From a virus (Duplodnaviria; Caudoviricetes): 24,808 nt of DNA. A program made the translations under genes and the position numbers. Below the pieces are notes generated by a model that was not told where the DNA came from, did no database searches, and saw nothing but the letters and a program-made list of their open reading frames with translations. Below, piece by piece: positions 1,398-24,808 of this stretch. The stretch is from the IMG/VR virus record IMGVR_UViG_3300036715_000180, positions 1 through 24,808 of that record; one strand, written 5' to 3'. Within the stretch, counting starts at the first letter, position 1. Each line of letters starts with the position of its first letter.

Positions 1398-3896
1398 ATG
1401 CTCGATCAACTGGATGAATTAACGCCTGAGCAGCAGCAAGCACAACAGGCGCAGATTGAGCGTCTGGACGCGTTCTCTGACACGATACGCAAGATGCGAA
1501 AAACGGCAATTGATGCTAGAGCGCAAATGGGCATTGAGGATCAGTGGCAAGAAGACGAGGATCATTACGAAGCAATTGATGATGCGACTCGGACTACTTC
1601 AAGCAGATTAAAGCCGTATGATTTTGGTGGAACTGGAACAGGCCCGACTCGCTTACCGGAAAAAACACTGACACGCAGTACGGTATTTGTTCCAATGACG
1701 CGCCCTTATGTCGATATGGCATCGGCACTGATCTCTGATTTGTATCTACCAACAGACGATAGGAATTGGGACGGTGAGCCTACGCCAATTCCAGATTTGA
1801 TCAAGCAAGCAAAAGACATAACGCCATTAGTACAGCAAATGCCAGCCATGCCTTCCATGATGGGACGCATTAAAAGTATATTTGCACCGCAGCCACAACC
1901 AGCTCAACCACTACAACCAGGACATCCGCCAATGCAAGGCGCAGCACCTCAAACAGTAGGCGATGTAGCGCAGCAACAGATAGACGCGGCAAATGACGCA
2001 TGGAAAAAAGCACGGACACAGATTGATGACTGGTTAGTTGACTGCTCCTACAATGCGGAAATGCGCAAAGTCATCAAAGATATGGCGCGTATTGGCACGG
2101 GAATTATGAAGGGGCCATTTCCTAAGTCGAAGTCATCTAAGGCGGTGATCAAGACTGGCGAGGAATATGCAATAGAGATTTCGCAGAAGGTAATTCCCGC
2201 GTCAAAACGCATTGATCCTTGGCGATTCTATCCAGATCCAGCGTGTGGCGAGAACATTAATGATGGTAGCTACGTTTTTGAGCAGGATTTTATTACGCGT
2301 AGCAAGTTACGTGAATTGCGTAAATTAGATCATTATATTGGCTCTCAGATTGACGCTTGCATGGAAGAAGGGCCGGTTAGTGCAACTTCAGGCAATAGAA
2401 AAACTGCATCCGAAAAACGCAGTGATTCAGAGCTATTCGAAGTTTGGTACTTTGAGGGTCAAGTGGAATGGCAGGATCTGGAAGACGCAGGATGTATTGT
2501 CGAGGGCAAGGCAGGTGATGTGTTTCATTCTGTCGTGACAATGGTCAATGACCGCGTGATCAAAGCCGCCTTATCGCATCTTGACTCTGAGGAATTTACT
2601 TACGATATCGTAGTATGGCAGCGTAAATCTGGCTTATGGATTGGCGATGGAGTAGGTCGCCAAGGACGCACAGCACAACGGGGATTAAATGCCGCCGTGC
2701 GTAACCTGATGGATAACGCAGGACGCTCAGCCAGACCGCATACTGTAATCAATCGGTCAGCAATTCAAGCCGGCCCCGATCCTTTTACGTGGTACACAAA
2801 GAACGATGCAGAACTTCAACAAGTCGCGCATGCGATGATGTTCTTCAATGTGCCAAGTATGCAAAATGAACTAATGGGCATAATTCAATATTTCTCAAAG
2901 ATGTTCGAAGATGCTACTGGCCTTCCGATGATGATGCAAGGCCAGCAAGGTGCGGCACCGGAAACAGTCGGCGGTATGCAGTTGCTGATGAATAATGCAT
3001 CTATCGTTCCAAGAGATATCGTTCGTCGTATTGATGATGCGTTGACCGAACCTAGCATTAACCGTTACTACGAATATTTGATGCTACATGGTGAGGATAA
3101 TTCCGCTAAAGGGGATTTTAATATTCATGCGCGCGGATCTAGTGCGTTGATGGAACGGGCAGCACAAGATAAATTCTTGATTCAATTGGTGCAGTTTTCA
3201 GGAAACCCTGCTTTCGGTCTTGATCCTGAAATGCTTATGGAAGAATTACTTAAGTCGGTACGGATCAATCCAAAGAGATTGCAATTGTCTGACGAAAAGA
3301 AAAAAGCCATGGCAAGCCAACCACCGCCAGAAGATCCTCGCATCACAGCAGCTAAGATCATGGCAGCAGCAGGCGTTCAGCGCGTACAGGCACAAGGTCA
3401 GATTGATAGTCAATTGCAGCAAGCTGAGGCAAATTCAGAGTTACAACGCATTGAACAAGAATCGACTCATGAGCAGCAAATGCTTCAGTCTGGCGGATCT
3501 ACTCCTCATATGGCTCAGGCAACAGCAAGGATAGAGCAGGAACGTATCCGCGCCAATACTGCGCAAATGGTTGAGGCTAGTCGATCCCATGCGGAGATGG
3601 CAAGAGCAGATAAAGAAATTCTCATCGCACAGCAAAATGGTGAATACGATTTGCGTAAATTGGAATTGCAGCGCGAGATTGCTTTGCTTGACTATGCGAA
3701 TAAAGAAAAGATTTCAATCAACGATGCAAAAGCAATGTTGGCAAAATCTGCAATGGATAACCAAACCAAGCGCGAACTAGCTTCAGCAGAAGTGCAATTG
3801 GCAAGCAATGAAAACGCCAAGAATCGTGAATTGGATTTGCATAAGCACACCACAAGTTTAGTGCGCGATCAAATGACTAATCCAAATACGCCATGA
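1398..3896 (+). CDS. Portal protein (podovirus P22/N4-type, 832 aa)
   Basis: Size and position before scaffold and capsid. Portal-like motifs: DMARIGTGIMKGP, RIDPWRFYPDP, FEDATGLPMMMQGQQG, ETVGGMQLLMNNA. Long Q/E/A-rich C-terminal coiled coil. Confidence 0.88.
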   Translation: MLDQLDELTPEQQQAQQAQIERLDAFSDTIRKMRKTAIDARAQMGIEDQWQEDEDHYEAIDDATRTTSSRLKPYDFGGTGTGPTRLPEKTLTRSTVFVPMTRPYVDMASALISDLYLPTDDRNWDGEPTPIPDLIKQAKDITPLVQQMPAMPSMMGRIKSIFAPQPQPAQPLQPGHPPMQGAAPQTVGDVAQQQIDAANDAWKKARTQIDDWLVDCSYNAEMRKVIKDMARIGTGIMKGPFPKSKSSKAVIKTGEEYAIEISQKVIPASKRIDPWRFYPDPACGENINDGSYVFEQDFITRSKLRELRKLDHYIGSQIDACMEEGPVSATSGNRKTASEKRSDSELFEVWYFEGQVEWQDLEDAGCIVEGKAGDVFHSVVTMVNDRVIKAALSHLDSEEFTYDIVVWQRKSGLWIGDGVGRQGRTAQRGLNAAVRNLMDNAGRSARPHTVINRSAIQAGPDPFTWYTKNDAELQQVAHAMMFFNVPSMQNELMGIIQYFSKMFEDATGLPMMMQGQQGAAPETVGGMQLLMNNASIVPRDIVRRIDDALTEPSINRYYEYLMLHGEDNSAKGDFNIHARGSSALMERAAQDKFLIQLVQFSGNPAFGLDPEMLMEELLKSVRINPKRLQLSDEKKKAMASQPPPEDPRITAAKIMAAAGVQRVQAQGQIDSQLQQAEANSELQRIEQESTHEQQMLQSGGSTPHMAQATARIEQERIRANTAQMVEASRSHAEMARADKEILIAQQNGEYDLRKLELQREIALLDYANKEKISINDAKAMLAKSAMDNQTKRELASAEVQLASNENAKNRELDLHKHTTSLVRDQMTNPNTP

Positions 3897-5029: not shown

Positions 5030-6085
5030 ATGTCAGTATCAGCATATTCAAATATAACGCAGCGGGTAGGCACCCTGAAAGGTGAGATCTTATCTCACGC
5101 TGCACCAGTCGAGGTTTTATCTTTGGTCGGTACAGATAAAGATAAAGTCATTCCAAAAAACAAATCCAATAACGTCAAGTTTCGTCGTTGGCTGCCTTAC
5201 GGTGGTGTTGATAATCAGTGGATCACTGCATCTAATGTCGCTTCGTTTGCATCAAGTCAAAGTGCGGTAGATGGTGTAACGCCAACTGCAGATACATTGA
5301 CACCAACAGACATCACTGCAACGCTTGTACAGTATCTTGTTCTGTACTGCGTTACAGATCAGATGACCGACATGCACGAAGATGGCGATATCATCCCTGA
5401 TGAAGCTAAGCGTCAAACTGGTCAACGTATGGGCTTGATTGGTGAAATGGTGCGTTACGGTGCTTATAAGGCGGGTACAACTGCTTTCTATAGTGGCGGC
5501 ACAAATCGCAGCACAGTCTCCAACACAGTGACAATCAATGTCTTGCGTAAGGTTGCCAAGACATTGTTAACCAATCATGCACGACCAATTACGCAAGTAT
5601 TAGTTCCATCAACCAACTTTGCCTCGGCACCAATTGAAGCTGCGTTTATTGTGTTCTGTCATACCGACTTAGAACCCGCTATCCGTGACTTGCCAAACTT
5701 CAAGGACATTGCCAACTACGCACAACGTAAGCCAATCCACGATATGGAAATTGGCTCATGCGAGCGTTTCCGTTTTGTCTTGTCCCCTGAGTTGGCTGGC
5801 TATCCTGATTCTGGCGCAGCAATTGGCTCAACAGGCATGATCTCAACTACAGGCACATTGATTGACGTTTATCCAATGATCATGATGGCCGATGAATCTG
5901 TTGGTCAAACACATTTGGGCGGCGTTGAAAATTGGGATGCATGGTACTTGCCGCCTTCACAGCGCGATAAGTCTGATCCAGGTGGACAACGTGGTTATGT
6001 TGGCGCGAAGTGGTACTACACCGCCATTATCCAAAACCAAGGCCGTCTTGCTGTTGTCGAGGCGGGCACACCGTACCTGTCTTAA
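5030..6085 (+). CDS. Major capsid protein, N4-gp56-like family (351 aa)
   Basis: AGGAG SD. Motifs IPKNKSNNVKFRR, GVTP, FCHTDLEPAIRDLPNF, EIGSCERFRFV and DKSDPGGQRGYVGAKW match the N4-gp56 major capsid pattern. Confidence 0.92.
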   Translation: MSVSAYSNITQRVGTLKGEILSHAAPVEVLSLVGTDKDKVIPKNKSNNVKFRRWLPYGGVDNQWITASNVASFASSQSAVDGVTPTADTLTPTDITATLVQYLVLYCVTDQMTDMHEDGDIIPDEAKRQTGQRMGLIGEMVRYGAYKAGTTAFYSGGTNRSTVSNTVTINVLRKVAKTLLTNHARPITQVLVPSTNFASAPIEAAFIVFCHTDLEPAIRDLPNFKDIANYAQRKPIHDMEIGSCERFRFVLSPELAGYPDSGAAIGSTGMISTTGTLIDVYPMIMMADESVGQTHLGGVENWDAWYLPPSQRDKSDPGGQRGYVGAKWYYTAIIQNQGRLAVVEAGTPYLS

Positions 6086-16753: not shown

Positions 16754-17823
16754 TGGGGATTTTCTTAGCGGCACTGGCAGCAGCTGGCGATGCTGGCGTT
16801 CAGTCGATGAATCAGAATATTGATCAGCAGAATCGCTCTGATTTAGAAACTCAACGGTCTGAACTGGCAACGCAGAAGGAGAAAGCGCTGACTGATTACA
16901 ATAATCAGGCAAAGATAAATTATGATAATCAAGTCAGAAAAGCAAGATCGGATGAAGTGAGTGATGGCGCACAAAAACTGGCACAACTACGTGCAGATGT
17001 CGCTAATCAAAATGCACAAGACCAAGGAGACGCCGCAGAGAATGCCTATGCAAACGCACCAGGTCTTTCTGATAGTGATAGGCGTGCTGGCATTATGGCA
17101 TCTCGTCAATACACCAAGGACAATACAACTAGCGGCAAGGCAGTGGCAACGGACGATGATATCCTGCATGCATCCGTCAATGCTGGATATACAAGCCCGA
17201 TGGAATTGCTGGCGATGAAGAAGCAAGATGCCCTTGCTAAATCACAAGCGATGCTAGCGGACATTAAAGAGCGTCATGAAGATAATAATGTTCAAAGGAC
17301 GATTCAGGCTGGAGAGCAAAATGCCAACTGGATGAAAGTTATGATGGCGAGAATTGAAGCGGATAAGTCGTCCAGTTCTGATAGTGAAGATACGGCAGCC
17401 ATCAAAACAGCAAAAGTCATTCAAGCCGATGAGAAAGGTCGAGGCAATGATATTTCTCTCGCGGAAGCAATTGACCGGACGCATAAGGCAGCAGATGCTG
17501 GAAATAACTTTGCGTTAAATTATGCAAAACTTCAATCGGAAGCTGGAATGATTCGACCAGATAAGGGAGATCCAACTAAGCCGGCACCGGGTAAATTATA
17601 TGCAACGGTTGACGATGCAATCGCAGCAGGTCAAAAAGCATTTATCAATCCTAGGGCGACATCAAAGCCAAGTGCCGCACCAAAACCTAGTAATTCCGAT
17701 AGTTCATTAAAAATTGCAAATGGTGTTACTTACGGAGGAAAAACTATATCTTATGATGACGTTCCCGCTGGCGCTACGTTCACCGATCCAAACGGAGTAA
17801 CTAGAATCAAAGGCGGTAAGTAA
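16753..17823 (+). CDS. Putative ejection protein (356 aa)
   Basis: AGGAG SD; short hydrophobic N-terminus, coiled coil, C-terminal YDDVPAGATFTDPNGVTRIK; TAATG-coupled to the giant ORF. Confidence 0.7.
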   Translation: MGIFLAALAAAGDAGVQSMNQNIDQQNRSDLETQRSELATQKEKALTDYNNQAKINYDNQVRKARSDEVSDGAQKLAQLRADVANQNAQDQGDAAENAYANAPGLSDSDRRAGIMASRQYTKDNTTSGKAVATDDDILHASVNAGYTSPMELLAMKKQDALAKSQAMLADIKERHEDNNVQRTIQAGEQNANWMKVMMARIEADKSSSSDSEDTAAIKTAKVIQADEKGRGNDISLAEAIDRTHKAADAGNNFALNYAKLQSEAGMIRPDKGDPTKPAPGKLYATVDDAIAAGQKAFINPRATSKPSAAPKPSNSDSSLKIANGVTYGGKTISYDDVPAGATFTDPNGVTRIKGGK

Positions 17824-20800
17824 TGGCAAATCCTTGGGATAACGATGCTGTAGTCAGTGCGCCTTGGGAAAATGATAAACCTGTAGCGGAATCCAAAGGC
17901 ATCATTGCGTCTGCATGGGATGGCGTGAAGTCTGCTGCAAGCAATGTCGCTGATGGCGTTGCAAGTGACGTGAAGAGTTTATATAGCTCGCCATCTAGCG
18001 TCATGGAAAACCTCGACCAGAAAAATCCAACGCCGTTGAATGAGCAGGGAACATCTAACCCTGCTCTCGGCCCGATGCGTAAGGATTATGTTGATAGCGT
18101 TCGCGCCAAGACATTGCCAGATCAGATCGATCAAGCTAAGACAGATCCGCAAGCGGCCAAGATTGCAGCGCAAACGCTTGCGCGGTCTAAGCAACCTGAT
18201 ACTTTATCGATGACTAATCAGGACATTTCTGACCACGCAGAAAGAATGTTGCATGGTGATGCTGCGCCAACTGATCTGTATGGCAATACTGAAATGCAGA
18301 AGGTTGACGATACCCCATACCAACTGACAAAGGAGGATGTTGATCATTTGATGAAATCTGGCGCCACTCTGGAAATGAGTAGCGGCTCAACGATCAAGGA
18401 TATCACTGCCAACGCAATGGGCGGCCTGTTGACGACCGGCGCGAAGTCTGTCGCCGCATTCAGTGATGCAGTTGGCGCTGATGATATGGCTGCAAAGGCC
18501 GATGCTTATGCCAAGCACGTTAATGAAATCATGCAGGAAAATGGAGGCAGCTCTGTTTCTGGAAAAGCAGCAAGTATTGTTGGTGCGATCACCAGTGTTC
18601 TAGCCTTGCCAGAATTGGCACTTGCTCATGTGGCGGCGAATGCTGGACTGTTTGCGATCCCTGCTTTCCGTGATACGCTAAATGAAAAGCTAGCCGAAGG
18701 TAATAGTTACGGAAATGCATTGTCACATGCTGTTGCTTCGTTTGGCGTAAATATGTTATTGCCAACAGTCGCAACAAAAGGCAGTGGCGCGGCTGCCAAG
18801 TTGTTCGGTGCGGCTGAAAAAGACTCTCTTGGGCAGACTGTCATTACGGCTACTGGCGCAAAGGGCGCAGCGGCACAACTAGGTTCTGCTGCTGCGGAAG
18901 GCGTTGGATTTTCGCTAGCTAGCCATGGCATTGATAAAGGCATTGATTTTGTATCAGGGCAAAAAAATGACTCTCAGTTAGATTCAAAGGATCTATTGGC
19001 AAACGCTATTGCTTTTGTTGCATTGCGAGGTCAACAAGCAAGAAAGCAGTACAATGGCTCTGCACTACATGATCAAATCGCAAATGAAATAAACTCAGTT
19101 AATCTTGCTGATGATTCGCAGTCAGTAGCCTTAAATAGACTCAAGCTAGATCCAAATTCAATTACACCACAAGAAACCGTTAAGCCTTTATTGGCGGCTC
19201 CCCTCGTCAATTCAGTTGCGCCTACAGTTGCCACCGACACACTAAGCAAGCTCAACGCAATCCGTCCATCGCCAGCCGATCAAATGTCATCCCTTCTCAG
19301 TCCAGAACAACGGGCATCGCTAGAGCAGGCAAAGAGCGAAGTCGTAGCAAAGCAAAAAATTGATAGCATCACCAGCGCACCGGATATTGATACGGCGATT
19401 GCAGCGGCGAAAGAAGCGGTCATTGCACCGATAGAGCAAAATACTAATCCAGCAAGAGAAGGCTATACGCCTGCAAGTTGGGTATTGCGTGAGAAAGCTA
19501 CTGGTAAAGTCATTGCTGAAACATTCGATCCTCAGAAAGTGGCCGCGCTTAATACTGACAAATACGAAGCTGTTCCTATCAATGAACATCTTGGAAGTCT
19601 ATCTAGCCACATTGCTGAATCGACTCAGGCGATTGATGCAGCAAAAGCAAAGGCACAAGAAGCCGCTGATCTGGCAGAGCATAATCGCATGGGCGAAGTC
19701 GTCTCACGCGAACAGTTGCCTATCGACAGTCCAATGACAGTCAATAAAAATCAAGTCACGCAAGGTATGCATGATCTCTTTGCGGCACATGATGCGATTA
19801 CCGGAACTAAGACGGTCATCGTTGATAAATTACCTGGGCATGCTGACGGTATGATGGTCGGCAAGGATGGAACAATCTACATTCACAAAGATGCGTCCAT
19901 TAACCCGATTGATGTCTTCAATCATGAAGTGTCGCATGTCACCGATCAAATTCTTGGCGACTCTGCAACGATCAAGCTTGCTGACGATGCAGTAACTTCT
20001 TCGATGACACCAGAAGCAAAAGCCCGTTATGCCATGTATTACCACGGCGGAGAACTTCCTGAAAACATCAAAGGTATTCTGACGACTGAGCAGCTTGCAC
20101 AAGCGGAAAAAGGCAGTCTCACCAAGAAAAATGCAAAAGGTGAATGGGTCAACGACCTGAAATTAACACCTGAACAATCGAATAAGATAGCAGATATTTT
20201 CCACAATAAAGATGGCAAAGGTACGGCTTACATTCAAGAATTACGGGCAGACTTACGCGCTCATGCTGTCAAAGACTCTGGATACTGGAAGACATTCAAA
20301 GATTCCTTGATTCAGCATTTTGGCGAAGAGAAGGCCAATGGAATTTTCACCAATCTGGCGAATGCTTTCAAAGCGACATTGGAGAAATACCAAGAAGCGT
20401 ACAAGAACAAGCCATCATTTGCGATTAAACAATTAGTTAATAATCACCAAGAGATTTACAACGCCATTGCTAAAGCAGATGCCGAGGCAACGAATGTTCG
20501 TGAAGTCGTTAAGGTCAAGGCAGAAAAGAAACAAGCGGAAGCAGCGGCACGCAAAGAATTAATTGATGGCTTGCAAGAAAAAACGAATAAAGAATTACGT
20601 GGTATTGCGGCAAATCATCCTCGCGTCTATTTGAAAAATGCGGCCGCAGAGTTAGTTGCAAAACGTGACGCTGATTTACGCTTGAGTAAGTCGATAGCGG
20701 CAAAAGACCAACTGAAAAAGTCATCTAGCGTCAATCCAAATGTCGATAGCATGGCTGATGCAATTGCGAAACTTGGCGGTATTAATCGCGAAAGTGTGGC

Positions 20801-23800
20801 GCAACGCTTGCAATTATCTCCTGAAGAACTCAATGCAAAGGGGCAAGTCGGCTTCCGTGCGGCACCGTTATTCCACAAGTACGGCATGAATATCGAGCGC
20901 ATGGCAGAACGCCTGGCAGAGCTTGGCTATATCCACATGGACGAAGGCGGCAAGCACGACCAGCACGACTTTGAAGACAAGTTAATGGAAGTAGCAAATG
21001 GGGTTGAAGTTCACACGCCTAATGCTATGATGTTAAGAGCGCAAGCAGAACATGAGCATGCCATGCAGGAAGTTGGCGTGGAGTCGAAGGGTGACTTTGA
21101 ACATGTTGAAGATCGCGGTGATGCTGTTCAAGATGCCGTAGAGGGTAAACGCGATCCATTGGATGATAGCGATATTGCTTTCTTTGATCATGAGATCGAA
21201 AATAAAACTACCGCGCAAAATATGCGTGATCTTGGCTTTAGTGAAGAGGAAATTAAGAATGAACTTGCCAGAGAAGAAGAATCCAACGCCAGAAGAGAAG
21301 CGGAAATTTCTCATTCTGATGAGGGAATTTCACAAGATACCACCGGAAGAACGGGTGATGGTAGCGAAAGAGATGAAGCGCCGTATTCTCTCCAAGGCGA
21401 AAGCGCAGACGAAGCCAACGCAAGGCTAGAGAAAGAAGACCGTCAAGCCTACGAAGACCGTCAATCCGAGCAGGAACAGCATAACCGCGCCCAAGCTGAT
21501 AAGGAAGTTGGTAACTTCGGATTGACTGGCAGCGACCGTTCGGCAGATCGCAACGATGGTCAGAATAATTTGTTCAGCCCGAAGCGCGAAGATTACAAAT
21601 GGGAGACTGTCACTGAGACTGAAAATGGACCAGAGTTTAGCAATAAGCATTTTCTCTTACTGCCTACGCATGTGGACAATACATTCGATGCGAAATGGTT
21701 TCTTGGTGGTCGAGAGTATGCAGAAAGTAATGCGCATCACTATTGGGTATTTGATAAAAATAATCAAAAAGTCGCTAATCTTTCCCTTGAAATTGCGCAT
21801 GGCAAGATAGAAAAATTGCTTTCTATTGAGGTTGAGCCTACACTGAAAGGCAAGGGAATCGGCCGTGATGTTGTTGGCTCATTGTTAGCAAATGACAATT
21901 ATCTTCCTGATCATGCGGGGCAAGGCACTGGCTATGATGATTTACTGGCAAGTACCGATAAATATTTAAAAGTCTTCGATATCTTGAAGCAAAGTGAACC
22001 ATTCTGGAAAAAGGTAGGGGCAGATGAACTCAACGCAGACAATAACGGACAAACCAACTGGTCAAGTTTTGAGCGAGGACAGGCACGCAGAGAGGATGCG
22101 CCGCGCCAGGGAGGGATCGGAGAAGGCAATGCAGAGTCCGGCGAACCAGGAACGATTAAGTCAGGCCCTCGCCCGGATGCGTCAGGTTCAGAAAACGAAG
22201 TAAAGTATTCGCCTAAGCGCGAAGAAACATGGCACTACAGCCAACTATCAAAATCCATCGAAGAAGCGCCTGATCGCGTCTTTGGTGCGCCTAAACAAGT
22301 CGCAATGTGGCTGGACTCTAACGCTGGCAAGCTAGGCGTTAAGAAGGACGAAATACAGTGGACGGGTGTTACCGACTGGCTCAACATGCAAACCGGAAAA
22401 GTATCTAAGGCTGATGTCTTGGATTACTTGCGTTCTGGCGGTGTGCAGGTTCATGAGGTAATGAAGGGCGAGGATCAATATAGATATTTTGTAAAAGATA
22501 TGCAGAAGAAGTATGGTGATTCTTGGGTTGGCGATTTGTCCGATGCTGAAAAGAAAAAGAAAGAAGATTTTTTCAATTCAAGCAATGAGTTGGGTCAAAC
22601 AAAATATGAACAATATCAATTACCAGGTGGTGATAACTATCGTGAGTTATTGCTGACATTACCTAAAAATCAGGTATTGCCAGAAGGTTATTCCGTCATA
22701 GACAATCCAAGTTCAGCGCAAAATGCAAGAAAATTTATTGTCATTGATGGAGATAATAATAGGCTTGGAAGCGGCAATACAAAAGAAGAGGCTTTGCAAA
22801 CTTATTTTAATCATCATCAATCTGGTGATATGTATAAGTCCACCCATTGGGATGAAAAAAACATTCTCGCGCATATCCGATTTAATGACCGTACAGATAC
22901 CGAAGGCAATAAGGTTCTCTTTATAGAAGAATTGCAATCGGATTGGGGACAAGAGGGCTTGAAGAAGGGATTTAATTCACCAGATGATTACGAAAAAACA
23001 TTAGCCGATTTAAAAGCTAGATACCATGCAGCACCAGATGATAGTCCGCAACAAGACTCATTGCGTCGTCAGCTTGAAGACATGGTTTTATCCGATAATA
23101 AGAAAGGCGTACCATCTGCCCCATTCGTCACTAAAACAGAATCATGGCTACAGCTAGGCATCAAGCGCATGACAGCTTATGCCGTTGAACATGGCTATGA
23201 TAAGGTGGCTTTTGTGAATGGTGAGCAGTCTTCTAGCCGGTATGACCTGACAAAGCACATTGACGAAATCAGTTACCTGAAAAAACCAGATGGAAGTATT
23301 GCCACAATATCAGCAACAAAAGACGGATCATTTGTCTTTGATAAGCACAATATTGATATGGATGAAGTCGAGGCAACATTTGGAAAAGAGATTGCTAAAA
23401 AGATTGAATCAAGCGAGGGGCATAGCGATAATCGAGGACGTAAAGTTTTAGAAGGCGTTGATCTCAAAGTCGGCGGCGAAGGAATGAAAACCTTCTACGA
23501 TAAAATCGTTCCTCAGAATATCAATGATGCCTTAAAGAAGATTGGCGGCGGCCGGGTTGAGGGCGTGGATATTGGCGTTCCAAATGAGATTAAGTATTCT
23601 GTTGAAGAATATCGCGGTCCGACTGCGACACTTGAGCAAGTCAAACTTGTTCTTGATGTAGCTTCCAAGCCTGGCTCCGTATGGGAAAGCCCGATAACAG
23701 GTGAGCGCCAAGATGGCGTAGTCTCTCGTATTGCCAATGAAAATCCTTTAAAGAGAATAGTCAAGTCAATGGAAAATGGATCTTCATTTGAAGATGCAAT

Positions 23801-24808
23801 GGCAGAATTTCCATCTGATAGCGTGGCTAAAATCTTTGGTGGTAAGCTAATTGATGCAACTCCACCTCCTAAAATTGAAACATCATCGCAAAACGGCTTC
23901 ACAATAACCGACGCAATGCGTGACAAGGTAAGTCAAGGCTTGCCTTTGTTCTCACCAAAACGCCAAACAGAAACGCCAGAGTTTAAAAAGTGGTTTGGCG
24001 ATTCAAAAGTCGTTGACGATGAGGGTAAGCCGCTTGTTGTTTATCATGGGACTGGCGAAAACTTTAACGAGTTTAGCCTTGACAAGATGGGGTCATTTTC
24101 TAATGCTGATTCTGCCAAAGGCGGGTTTTTCTTTACAGACAGCAAGCCGCTTGCAGAGCAATTCAAGCAAGAGGCACAACGTAAAAATTTGAATTATGGC
24201 GATATTCGAAAAAAACTAAACAATCTTGATGATGCTGAATTTAAAAATCTAGCTACAGATGCGGGCCTAAAATTAGACCTGGAGATAGAAGGTAAGGAAT
24301 TTGTCATTGATAGCATGATAGATCGACTTGAACGAGATAACGATACATCTTTTATTGATGATAGAACTAATATTGATAGAGATATAAAACGATATATTGG
24401 GAAAGATGCTTTTGAGAAGGGAAATGTTGTTAATGCTTATTTGAGTATTAACAATCCAATGGAAGTTGTTGTTGATAGTGGATCTGAATTTGACGAGGAC
24501 TTGATAAATTCATCTATTAAAAAAGCGAAACTAGGCGGCTATGATGGGTTAGTCATTAAAGGTATGCTTGATTCTGCTGCTTCGGATGATCGCGGCAATA
24601 ATCAGATAAGTTCAAATGTTTATATTGCATTTACGCCTACCCAAATAAAATCCGCTACAGGTGAGAATAGGAAATTCGACGCAAGCAATCCTGATATTCG
24701 GTTCAGCCCAAGACGCGATATGCCAGATGTCATCATTGGCAACCCGCTAGGTGAACTGGCAAATCATGCCGAATATGAAAAGGCAAAGGCTGGAGATACA
24801 ATTTCCGC
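17823..24808 (+). CDS. Giant polyvalent ejection-type protein, at least 2,328 aa, 3'-truncated (zincin, GNAT, unassigned domain, ART-PolyVal-like, further domain)
   Basis: ATG at 17823 overlaps the upstream TAA. Manual translation (MANPWDNDAVVSAPWEND...) shows no in-frame stop to the window end. Motifs: HEVSH 19923-19937, KGKGIG 21846-21863, FWKKVG 22002-22019, IEELQSDW 22923-22946, YHGT 24042-24053. Confidence 0.92.
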   Translation, partial: MANPWDNDAVVSAPWENDKPVAESKGIIASAWDGVKSAASNVADGVASDVKSLYSSPSSVMENLDQKNPTPLNEQGTSNPALGPMRKDYVDSVRAKTLPDQIDQAKTDPQAAKIAAQTLARSKQPDTLSMTNQDISDHAERMLHGDAAPTDLYGNTEMQKVDDTPYQLTKEDVDHLMKSGATLEMSSGSTIKDITANAMGGLLTTGAKSVAAFSDAVGADDMAAKADAYAKHVNEIMQENGGSSVSGKAASIVGAITSVLALPELALAHVAANAGLFAIPAFRDTLNEKLAEGNSYGNALSHAVASFGVNMLLPTVATKGSGAAAKLFGAAEKDSLGQTVITATGAKGAAAQLGSAAAEGVGFSLASHGIDKGIDFVSGQKNDSQLDSKDLLANAIAFVALRGQQARKQYNGSALHDQIANEINSVNLADDSQSVALNRLKLDPNSITPQETVKPLLAAPLVNSVAPTVATDTLSKLNAIRPSPADQMSSLLSPEQRASLEQAKSEVVAKQKIDSITSAPDIDTAIAAAKEAVIAPIEQNTNPAREGYTPASWVLREKATGKVIAETFDPQKVAALNTDKYEAVPINEHLGSLSSHIAESTQAIDAAKAKAQEAADLAEHNRMGEVVSREQLPIDSPMTVNKNQVTQGMHDLFAAHDAITGTKTVIVDKLPGHADGMMVGKDGTIYIHKDASINPIDVFNHEVSHVTDQILGDSATIKLADDAVTSSMTPEAKARYAMYYHGGELPENIKGILTTEQLAQAEKGSLTKKNAKGEWVNDLKLTPEQSNKIADIFHNKDGKGTAYIQELRADLRAHAVKDSGYWKTFKDSLIQHFGEEKANGIFTNLANAFKATLEKYQEAYKNKPSFAIKQLVNNHQEIYNAIAKADAEATNVREVVKVKAEKKQAEAAARKELIDGLQEKTNKELRGIAANHPRVYLKNAAAELVAKRDADLRLSKSIAAKDQLKKSSSVNPNVDSMADAIAKLGGINRESVAQRLQLSPEELNAKGQVGFRAAPLFHKYGMNIERMAERLAELGYIHMDEGGKHDQHDFEDKLMEVANGVEVHTPNAMMLRAQAEHEHAMQEVGVESKGDFEHVEDRGDAVQDAVEGKRDPLDDSDIAFFDHEIENKTTAQNMRDLGFSEEEIKNELAREEESNARREAEISHSDEGISQDTTGRTGDGSERDEAPYSLQGESADEANARLEKEDRQAYEDRQSEQEQHNRAQADKEVGNFGLTGSDRSADRNDGQNNLFSPKREDYKWETVTETENGPEFSNKHFLLLPTHVDNTFDAKWFLGGREYAESNAHHYWVFDKNNQKVANLSLEIAHGKIEKLLSIEVEPTLKGKGIGRDVVGSLLANDNYLPDHAGQGTGYDDLLASTDKYLKVFDILKQSEPFWKKVGADELNADNNGQTNWSSFERGQARREDAPRQGGIGEGNAESGEPGTIKSGPRPDASGSENEVKYSPKREETWHYSQLSKSIEEAPDRVFGAPKQVAMWLDSNAGKLGVKKDEIQWTGVTDWLNMQTGKVSKADVLDYLRSGGVQVHEVMKGEDQYRYFVKDMQKKYGDSWVGDLSDAEKKKKEDFFNSSNELGQTKYEQYQLPGGDNYRELLLTLPKNQVLPEGYSVIDNPSSAQNARKFIVIDGDNNRLGSGNTKEEALQTYFNHHQSGDMYKSTHWDEKNILAHIRFNDRTDTEGNKVLFIEELQSDWGQEGLKKGFNSPDDYEKTLADLKARYHAAPDDSPQQDSLRRQLEDMVLSDNKKGVPSAPFVTKTESWLQLGIKRMTAYAVEHGYDKVAFVNGEQSSSRYDLTKHIDEISYLKKPDGSIATISATKDGSFVFDKHNIDMDEVEATFGKEIAKKIESSEGHSDNRGRKVLEGVDLKVGGEGMKTFYDKIVPQNINDALKKIGGGRVEGVDIGVPNEIKYSVEEYRGPTATLEQVKLVLDVASKPGSVWESPITGERQDGVVSRIANENPLKRIVKSMENGSSFEDAMAEFPSDSVAKIFGGKLIDATPPPKIETSSQNGFTITDAMRDKVSQGLPLFSPKRQTETPEFKKWFGDSKVVDDEGKPLVVYHGTGENFNEFSLDKMGSFSNADSAKGGFFFTDSKPLAEQFKQEAQRKNLNYGDIRKKLNNLDDAEFKNLATDAGLKLDLEIEGKEFVIDSMIDRLERDNDTSFIDDRTNIDRDIKRYIGKDAFEKGNVVNAYLSINNPMEVVVDSGSEFDEDLINSSIKKAKLGGYDGLVIKGMLDSAASDDRGNNQISSNVYIAFTPTQIKSATGENRKFDASNPDIRFSPRRDMPDVIIGNPLGELANHAEYEKAKAGDTIS
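21259..21429 (+). CDS. Putative nested small protein (56 aa) in +1 frame of the giant ORF
   Basis: GAGGA at 21246-21250, 8 nt before ATG. Reads MNLPEKKNPTPEEKRKFLILMREFHKIPPEERVMVAKEMKRRILSKAKAQTKPTQG. The main frame here is a low-complexity linker. Confidence 0.5.
   Translation: MNLPEKKNPTPEEKRKFLILMREFHKIPPEERVMVAKEMKRRILSKAKAQTKPTQG
21573..24716 (+). repeat. Dispersed (F/Y)SP(K/R)R junction motif, 4 copies
   Basis: FSPKR 21573-21587, YSPKR 22206-22220, FSPKR 23949-23963, FSPRR 24702-24716, all in the giant ORF frame. Confidence 0.85.
22024..22203 (+). CDS. Putative nested small protein (59 aa) in +1 frame, directly after the GNAT core
   Basis: AAGGTAGGGG at 22011-22020 before ATG. Reads MNSTQTITDKPTGQVLSEDRHAERMRRAREGSEKAMQSPANQERLSQALARMRQVQKTK. 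The stop lies 2 nt before the YSPKR junction codons. Confidence 0.5.
   Translation: MNSTQTITDKPTGQVLSEDRHAERMRRAREGSEKAMQSPANQERLSQALARMRQVQKTK

Follow-up and report, generated by a model that had tools for sequence, protein, structure and literature searches.

Genomic context and domain content of the large protein

The window, that is the whole contig of 24,808 bases that we analysed, carries a podophage-type morphogenesis module with portal, major head protein, tail genes, lysis genes and, as its last gene, a large ORF that is open at the 3' end (Table 1). The contig is an incomplete genome. The portal, major head and tail genes lie upstream of the large ORF and on the same strand, so that this ORF stands in a virion morphogenesis context. 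The metagenome runs containing the contig sequence come from microbial mat and sediment, and one of them (X1) may be its source; no RNA datasets were listed among these runs, and a tRNA scan detected no tRNA. The major head protein shares 56% identity with its counterpart in MW202426 and about 23-34% with those of cultured phages of Stenotrophomonas, Xanthomonas, Pseudoalteromonas and Rhizobium.

The chain encoded by the large ORF joins domains with quite different activities: an MPTase signature and GNAT-like, GNAT-fold and ART modules. We assigned it to the polyvalent proteins of Iyer et al. 2017 (PMC5512222) because of its ART-PolyVal domain, which is typical of that family as described there (PF18760, 56.6 bits for a cut-off of 31.2). 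Its full-length relatives P0001, P0002 and P0003 have 3003-3425 aa. From the gene context and from the virion proteomics of phi24B gp47, a protein with LPD domains that was detected in virions (bioRxiv 10.64898/2026.04.10.717836), we infer that the large protein is probably packaged and injected with the DNA. The N-terminus (17823-17876) consists of a short tandem PWxND repeat in common with P0002, and P0001 begins with a repeated FDPSTA; the N-terminal tandem repeat is possibly a head-targeting leader.

Table 1. Position of the features of the window that are discussed in the text
Feature	Position	Strand	Remarks
Portal	1398-3896	same as large ORF	upstream, with tail genes
Major head protein	5030-6085	same as large ORF	upstream
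Large polyvalent protein	17823..24806	+	2328 aa covered, runs off the contig end; last gene of the module; predicted ejection protein
Zincin-like metallopeptidase (MPTase) domain, candidate processing enzyme	19698..20480	+	HEVSH 19923-19937 (aa 701); ExxA third ligand E806, 20238-20240
Conserved unnamed domain and acidic/polar linker, motif-free	20520..21572	+	77% identical to P0002 (aa 901-1250)
Junction motif 1, FSPKR	21573..21587	+	aa 1251; identity to P0002 28/30 before, 5/30 after
Cassette 1, GNAT-like domain and polar linker	21588..22205	+	LPD37 at this place in P0002
Junction motif 2, YSPKR	22206..22220	+	aa 1462; YSPKR in P0002 between its own two different cassettes; flanks 2/30 and 2/30 identical
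Cassette 2, widespread unnamed domain of 576 aa with a predicted GNAT-fold core and large inserts	22221..23948	+	PBECR5 at this place in P0002
NEIKYS	23583..23600	+	inside cassette 2, start of variable insert
Junction motif 3, FSPKR	23949..23963	+	aa 2043; identity to P0002 4/30 before, 27/30 after
Cassette 3, ART-PolyVal ADP-ribosyltransferase-like domain	23964..24701	+	Pfam PF18760, E 6e-15
Junction motif 4, FSPRR	24702..24716	+	aa 2294; identity to P0002 21/30 before, 4/30 after
Beginning of another module, interrupted by the contig end	24717..24808	+	no Pfam hit; no match among compared relatives

The domain of cassette 1 is weakly GNAT-like (Pfam E-value of 0.0065, below the cut-off; Atlas 0.94). 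For cassette 2, the predicted model has a GNAT-fold core (Z of 8-9.7, rmsd of about 3.3 over 124-145 residues) and GNATs make up most of the top 50 rows; with this model Foldseek gave no match at E<=0.001, the best Atlas match was unnamed (0.86) and no Pfam family was found. We confirmed at least 549 relatives of this cassette and estimate about 1400 matching stretches in phages. Its residues R, E, Q, S and Q around EExQSD are invariant, and it may be a new enzyme family. Farther downstream, a PRTase reading of the last 30 residues of the interrupted module was set aside, since it found no support among the compared relatives. In the ART domain (24039-24137), as read by eye, the strand-1 His is present (VYHGT) and a Phe (GFFFT) occupies the place where the family description puts the strand-2 Tyr (PMC5512222).

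Four copies of a short motif bound the cassettes

An earlier note on this DNA had reported four copies of (F/Y)SP(K/R)R, hereafter the tag, and had placed one at each junction between effector cassettes. We confirmed that the four copies are in frame within the 2328-aa ORF, with the codons quoted there, and that they indeed bound the GNAT-like, the second GNAT-fold and the ART cassettes, one per joint. The count expected by chance is 0.0016, and two or more copies were found in 0 of 20,000 shuffles. Two controls allowed for the choice of the motif after the fact: with a loose reduced alphabet, four copies of some 5-mer were obtained in 57 of 1000 shuffles, and with BLOSUM scoring the observed score was reached in 2 of 1000. 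A six-frame scan of the window detected no in-frame tag in any real ORF beyond the large one, with a single out-of-frame match at 21386. The other predicted ejection proteins of the window are without the tag, and none of its capsid, portal and scaffold proteins carries it, which is not the distribution of a prohead-protease site.

At identical tag residues (19 pairs) the codons agree in 38 of 69 cases for an expectation of 31.7 ± 3.8, and within the window in 12 of 24 cases versus 7.7 expected. The final Arg codon is CGC in all four window tags; Ser is encoded both by AGC and by TCN, which are two or three bases apart. Conservation of the tag is mainly at the protein level, as the earlier note had proposed, with a slight excess of codon identity that is far from DNA identity. 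Among the at least 60 chance-like families given by a repeat finder there is a single 25-nt, 76% pair.

Natural cassette swaps occur at the tags

P0002 (3083 aa) is the closest relative. It has the N-terminal part and the ART in common with the window protein. The places of the two GNAT-type cassettes are taken by LPD37 and PBECR5; four matching tags nevertheless stand at its four joints (4/4, as in the window, 4/4). When identity was counted over the 30 residues before and after each tag, we observed that it flips at tags 1, 3 and 4 and that tag 2 persists between unrelated flanks (Table 1). Domain swaps in homologues therefore coincide with the motif, as the earlier note expected. One extra YSPRY of P0002 lies inside PBECR5 and not at a joint. 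In P0001, [YF]SxxR stands at each end of cassette 2 and at two other places that are likely joints. P0003 has the linker region and an ART in common with the window protein, with a different, later MPTase, and at the equivalent places we read by eye FFDL, LHDL and VHDI. The 3145-aa protein of MW202426 shows FSR, KS and YS tags at likely joints.

Contigs of two runs (X3 and X4), which belong to two other studies, meet the window at 22205, the base just before tag 2. Upstream of this join they carry at least 255 unrelated bases, whose frame ends, as read by eye, like the LPD37 cassette of P0002. In these runs there are also allele edges within conserved domain sequence, at 23887, 24054 and 24661-24673, which indicates that exchange uses any shared stretch. 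Runs X2-X4 also contain alleles with a diverged linker (21000-21290) and with other versions of cassette or insert, and appear to sample a locally mosaic phage population.

The tag variant follows the host protein

Among relatives the tag takes forms such as KSADR, FASR, YQLKK, FQ and FSNR. To compare them, we anchored the cassettes on conserved domain ends, the tag being excluded. The ART set had 72 cassettes with both ends, of which 64 were unique and 47 were used, after removal of 6 with an N-terminal extension, 3 in tandem and 8 second copies or near-duplicates. The residues downstream of an ART agree more closely with the upstream slot in their own protein than with the slots in others, with a mean z of 1.39 reached in 0 of 20,000 permutations, which are uncorrected for kinship here as in the two following cases; the own slot is the single best match in 15 of the 47 (4-residue test). 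With cassette 2 the upstream and downstream tags match as well (z of 0.79, 0 of 20,000 permutations, 28 cassettes out of 31 before de-duplication), and the own slot is best in 5 of 28 (5-residue test). For eight held-out cassettes taken from genome contigs, the result was 60-550 of 20,000 permutations. Across relatives, then, the same ART and GNAT-fold cassettes take the tag variant of the protein in which they reside.

A zincin-like domain lies upstream of all four tags

The MPTase domain, on which the earlier note is silent, is the candidate processing enzyme. Its H, E, H and distal E are invariant in 18 of 18 aligned rows, and the third ligand, ELRA at aa 806, fits the gluzincin pattern (E,H)xx(A,F,T,S,G) as defined in PMC7213743. 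In the predicted model (pLDDT 77) three strands precede the HExxH helix, and the best structural rows are mostly zincins, with weak scores (Z <=5.9, rmsd of 3.2-4.0 over about 97 residues). Foldseek with this model gave no match at E<=0.001, the best E-value being 0.52; no match was found for the MPTase region in viral contigs, for the linker region in metagenome contigs or for the MPTase profile in PDB sequences, and a search for longer proteins with the MPTase alignment returned only 3 proteins.

All four tags lie downstream of the MPTase, which in the window is itself without flanking tags. In the MPTase clade to which the window belongs, the density of tag-like matches after HExxH is 2.8 times that before it (117 in 47,458 aa versus 21 in 23,736 aa), with a tag-like pattern that was chosen after seeing the data.

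Tag class and MPTase clade are associated

An HExxH is present in 79 of the 110 de-duplicated proteins with a scored joint. The remaining 31 have none in the stretch covered; 20 of these are complete reading frames, and many are FS- or YS-tagged. In the clade of the window's MPTase, S is found at tag position 2 in 17 of 19 proteins, and in the clade marked by 'ADLSTFLHE' Q-type tags are found in 12 of 13 (Fisher 5e-6, uncorrected for kinship); the exceptions are L099, L153, P0034 and L240. Clade profiles assigned 10 of 46 held-out proteins, with the tag class as follows: 5/5 S and 5/5 Q. In the 36 unassigned ones S is the commonest letter (18) and Q is rare (2). Because the Q slot often adjoins the protease, we rescored joints away from it, with old and new rows pooled: S in 11, Q in 0 and unclear in 6 of 17 for the clade of the window, versus Q in 12, S in 1 and unclear in 5 of 18 for the 'ADLSTFLHE' clade.

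On the cassette tree only 2 independent protease-tag pairs stand on supported branches (sign test, p of 0.5), and another test gave 1 pair. Co-evolution of protease and tag is therefore suggested by these comparisons, and shared ancestry could explain the link. In Pseudoalteromonas phage Y7 the large protein bears FSR tags, and the 4560 aa covered contain no HExxH. Caulobacter phage Jess A gp39 contains an HExxH, and its ART is bounded by LxQG on either side. In two other contigs (L001:3-9246 and L019:2-13270) the polyvalent gene is split into two adjacent ORFs, of which the downstream one is tagged and without HExxH; these split genes are a natural case for processing in trans.

Motifs of head proteins fill the same slot in other phages

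In phages of another type, the same ART terminates in [LM]xKA (L017, L027 and L042, one lineage) or in ITES (L012 and L037). The genes in the scaffold slot of such phages are enriched in these motifs, with 7, 8 and 9 observed versus 1.4-1.6 expected, and the gene in the protease slot of L012 has 9 versus 2.3 expected; some control genes are mildly enriched too. The 'protease-slot' genes of L017, L027 and L042 gave no match to named protease families and are identified by position alone. The regions L017:8870-20404, L027:6863-19808 and L042:7751-20182 each have repeated [LM]xKA in at least three large cargo-like genes, and the motif is also seen there in the protease-slot gene, the scaffold-slot gene and the capsid N-terminus. 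Proven head-protease sites of similar style are AXE in SPN3US and SXE in phiKZ (PMC10052503, PMC5694885). In the head module of the window, on this incomplete contig, we detected no head-maturation protease gene between portal and capsid.

What the tag may do

The earlier note had offered a protease-cleavage signal or a packaging/unfolding signal. The former is our best reading, with a candidate protease in the same chain and tags at the swap edges; the latter is its main rival. More precisely, we propose that the tag is a recognition site for cutting by the protein's own candidate zincin domain, and give this a probability of about 0.5. The broader statement that some protease, whichever it may be, cuts at the tag is probable. 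The large protein would be packed whole into the head and its chain threaded into the cell, where the zincin would refold and cut at the tags. This would release pieces of about 23 kDa (GNAT-like), 65 kDa (GNAT-fold) and 28 kDa (ART) from a 134-kDa N-terminal part. An incoming cassette would be kept only when its ends fit the preference of the resident protease, and the in-step change of tags within a protein may be due to this requirement.

Self-processing is favoured by the swap pair with P0002, the in-step tags, the codon counts, the association of clade and tag, the tag density after HExxH and the head-protein motifs elsewhere. Against it stand the 20 complete relatives without HExxH, many of them FS- or YS-tagged, and the phage Y7 protein, which is tagged and shows no HExxH in the part covered. 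The association of clade and tag rests on 2 pairs and has exceptions, the own slot is the best match in a minority of cassettes and the window's MPTase is not flanked by a tag. Moreover, N4 vRNAP, ArdC and TraC1 possess an MPTase and yet are packaged or transferred whole, as described in PMC5512222, and the metal ligand of ArdC is dispensable for the function tested in PMC7213743.

The tag could instead be a handling signal that is not cleaved, a peptide whose binding serves to pack or unfold each domain or to thread it through the tail. Candidate binders would be the zincin-like domain, another ejection protein and a host chaperone or translocase. Such a signal explains the protein-level conservation and the in-step change equally well, fits the relatives that keep tags without HExxH, and agrees with the unprocessed packaging of the MPTase-bearing N4 vRNAP (PMC5512222). 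However, the other predicted ejection proteins of the window are untagged, the same slot in other phage types is filled with motifs that, like protease sites, are enriched in head proteins, and the tag class follows the MPTase clade. We consider this rival unlikely, though the strongest one.

Cutting in trans, by a phage protease encoded outside the contig or by a host enzyme, appears more doubtful still. The complete relatives without HExxH, the incompleteness of the contig and the head-protease-type motifs in the slot of other phages all speak for it. On the other side, the capsid, portal and scaffold proteins of the window are untagged, we detected no protease gene between portal and capsid, and a host enzyme is not expected to track the MPTase clade. 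Omptins cut at dibasic sites; this type of site was set aside because relatives use FSxxR without a dibasic pair.

The least probable of the rivals is that the tag arises from cassette shuffling as a by-product, being a patch of homology or a duplicated target site with no function in the protein: swap edges do coincide with tags, the X3 and X4 contigs reach motif 2 from different upstream DNA and codon identity slightly exceeds expectation, but both types of Ser codon are used, the repeat finder gave one weak pair and other allele edges lie inside conserved domains. Of the microhomology for shuffling suggested in the earlier note, the swap edges at the motif stand, while the DNA likeness of the copies is barely above the prediction from codon usage, so that microhomology would be at most a by-product; a DNA repeat or recombination site as primary cause is not supported by the codon counts or the repeat finder.

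Relation to known systems

Iyer et al. already proposed autoproteolytic release of the domains of polyvalent proteins (PMC5512222). Like those described there, the large protein is a giant chain of several enzymes, with ART-PolyVal modules, GNAT-type modules and an HExxH MPTase, and its gene lies beside virion genes. The parts of that paper available to us give no cleavage site or junction consensus, whereas here a tag is mapped to every joint and varies in step. phi24B gp47 and N4 vRNAP are likewise giant virion proteins of podophages with an HExxH or metallopeptidase domain (bioRxiv 10.64898/2026.04.10.717836; PMC13434306). In the available text of these two sources no processing between domains is reported, and peptidoglycan is the proposed target of the gp47 peptidase. 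The HExxH is pointed out in the 2026 N4 paper, whose accessible portion contains no mention of 'proteoly' (PMC13434306).

Ejection proteins processed by a prohead protease, namely T4 gp21/Alt, phiKZ gp175 and SPN3US gp245 AXE (PMC5694885, PMC10052503), also bear a short consensus on head-packed, injected proteins, and cleavage was proven there by mass spectrometry. In those systems, as these sources present them, a separate serine protease also cuts capsid and portal and mostly removes propeptides. Here, in contrast, the tag occurs in one protein only, at its internal joints, and that chain also contains the candidate enzyme.

RNA-virus polyproteins offer another parallel. They are single chains with an embedded protease and a boundary consensus that differs between lineages; their cleavage is proven and they are translated in the infected cell. 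The protein described here would differ in being virion cargo made beforehand with freely swapped cassettes.

The protein family and the idea of autoproteolysis are thus already known. New at this locus are a clean pair of naturally swapped proteins, a co-occurring allele whose break falls at the tag, and a rule linking clade to tag that can be tested. We found no description of such a junction code in the open-licence PMC and bioRxiv papers, as far as their text could be searched.

A wider generalization is that tailed phages widely inject self-processing polyproteins, in which the zincin reads a lineage-specific junction code and moving cassettes are re-tagged to suit the resident protease, even to head-protease codes (xKA, xES) when they travel as capsid cargo. 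The junction codes would then be xSxxR in the clade of the window and xQ in another. We put both forward tentatively, as somewhat less than an even bet.

If it is true, the junction code would make it possible to recognise domain boundaries and new effectors directly in a sequence. The self-cleavage of polyvalent proteins, predicted in 2017, has so far lacked a site, and the tag, the swap pair and the clade-to-tag rule make it testable. The tags also offer a way to split thousands of unannotated giant phage proteins into candidate effector domains. Should the cleavage reading be wrong, the tag would still mark a conserved signal for the handling of 300-kDa proteins that are threaded through a phage tail.

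Other short motifs near the tags

The earlier note also took NEIKYS, inside cassette 2, for a degenerate tag that may flag a sub-insert. A variable sub-insert does begin there, but we rejected NEIKYS as a fifth tag: it is without P and R, homologues do not conserve it and 53 of 300 shuffles produced an echo of this kind.

Just before tag 1, and overlapping it, is QNNLF (21558-21575), which we take to resemble the QxxLF motif that binds the sliding clamp. At this place relatives carry QGLMF, QKSMF, QGDMF or QGGLF, even with a different tag.
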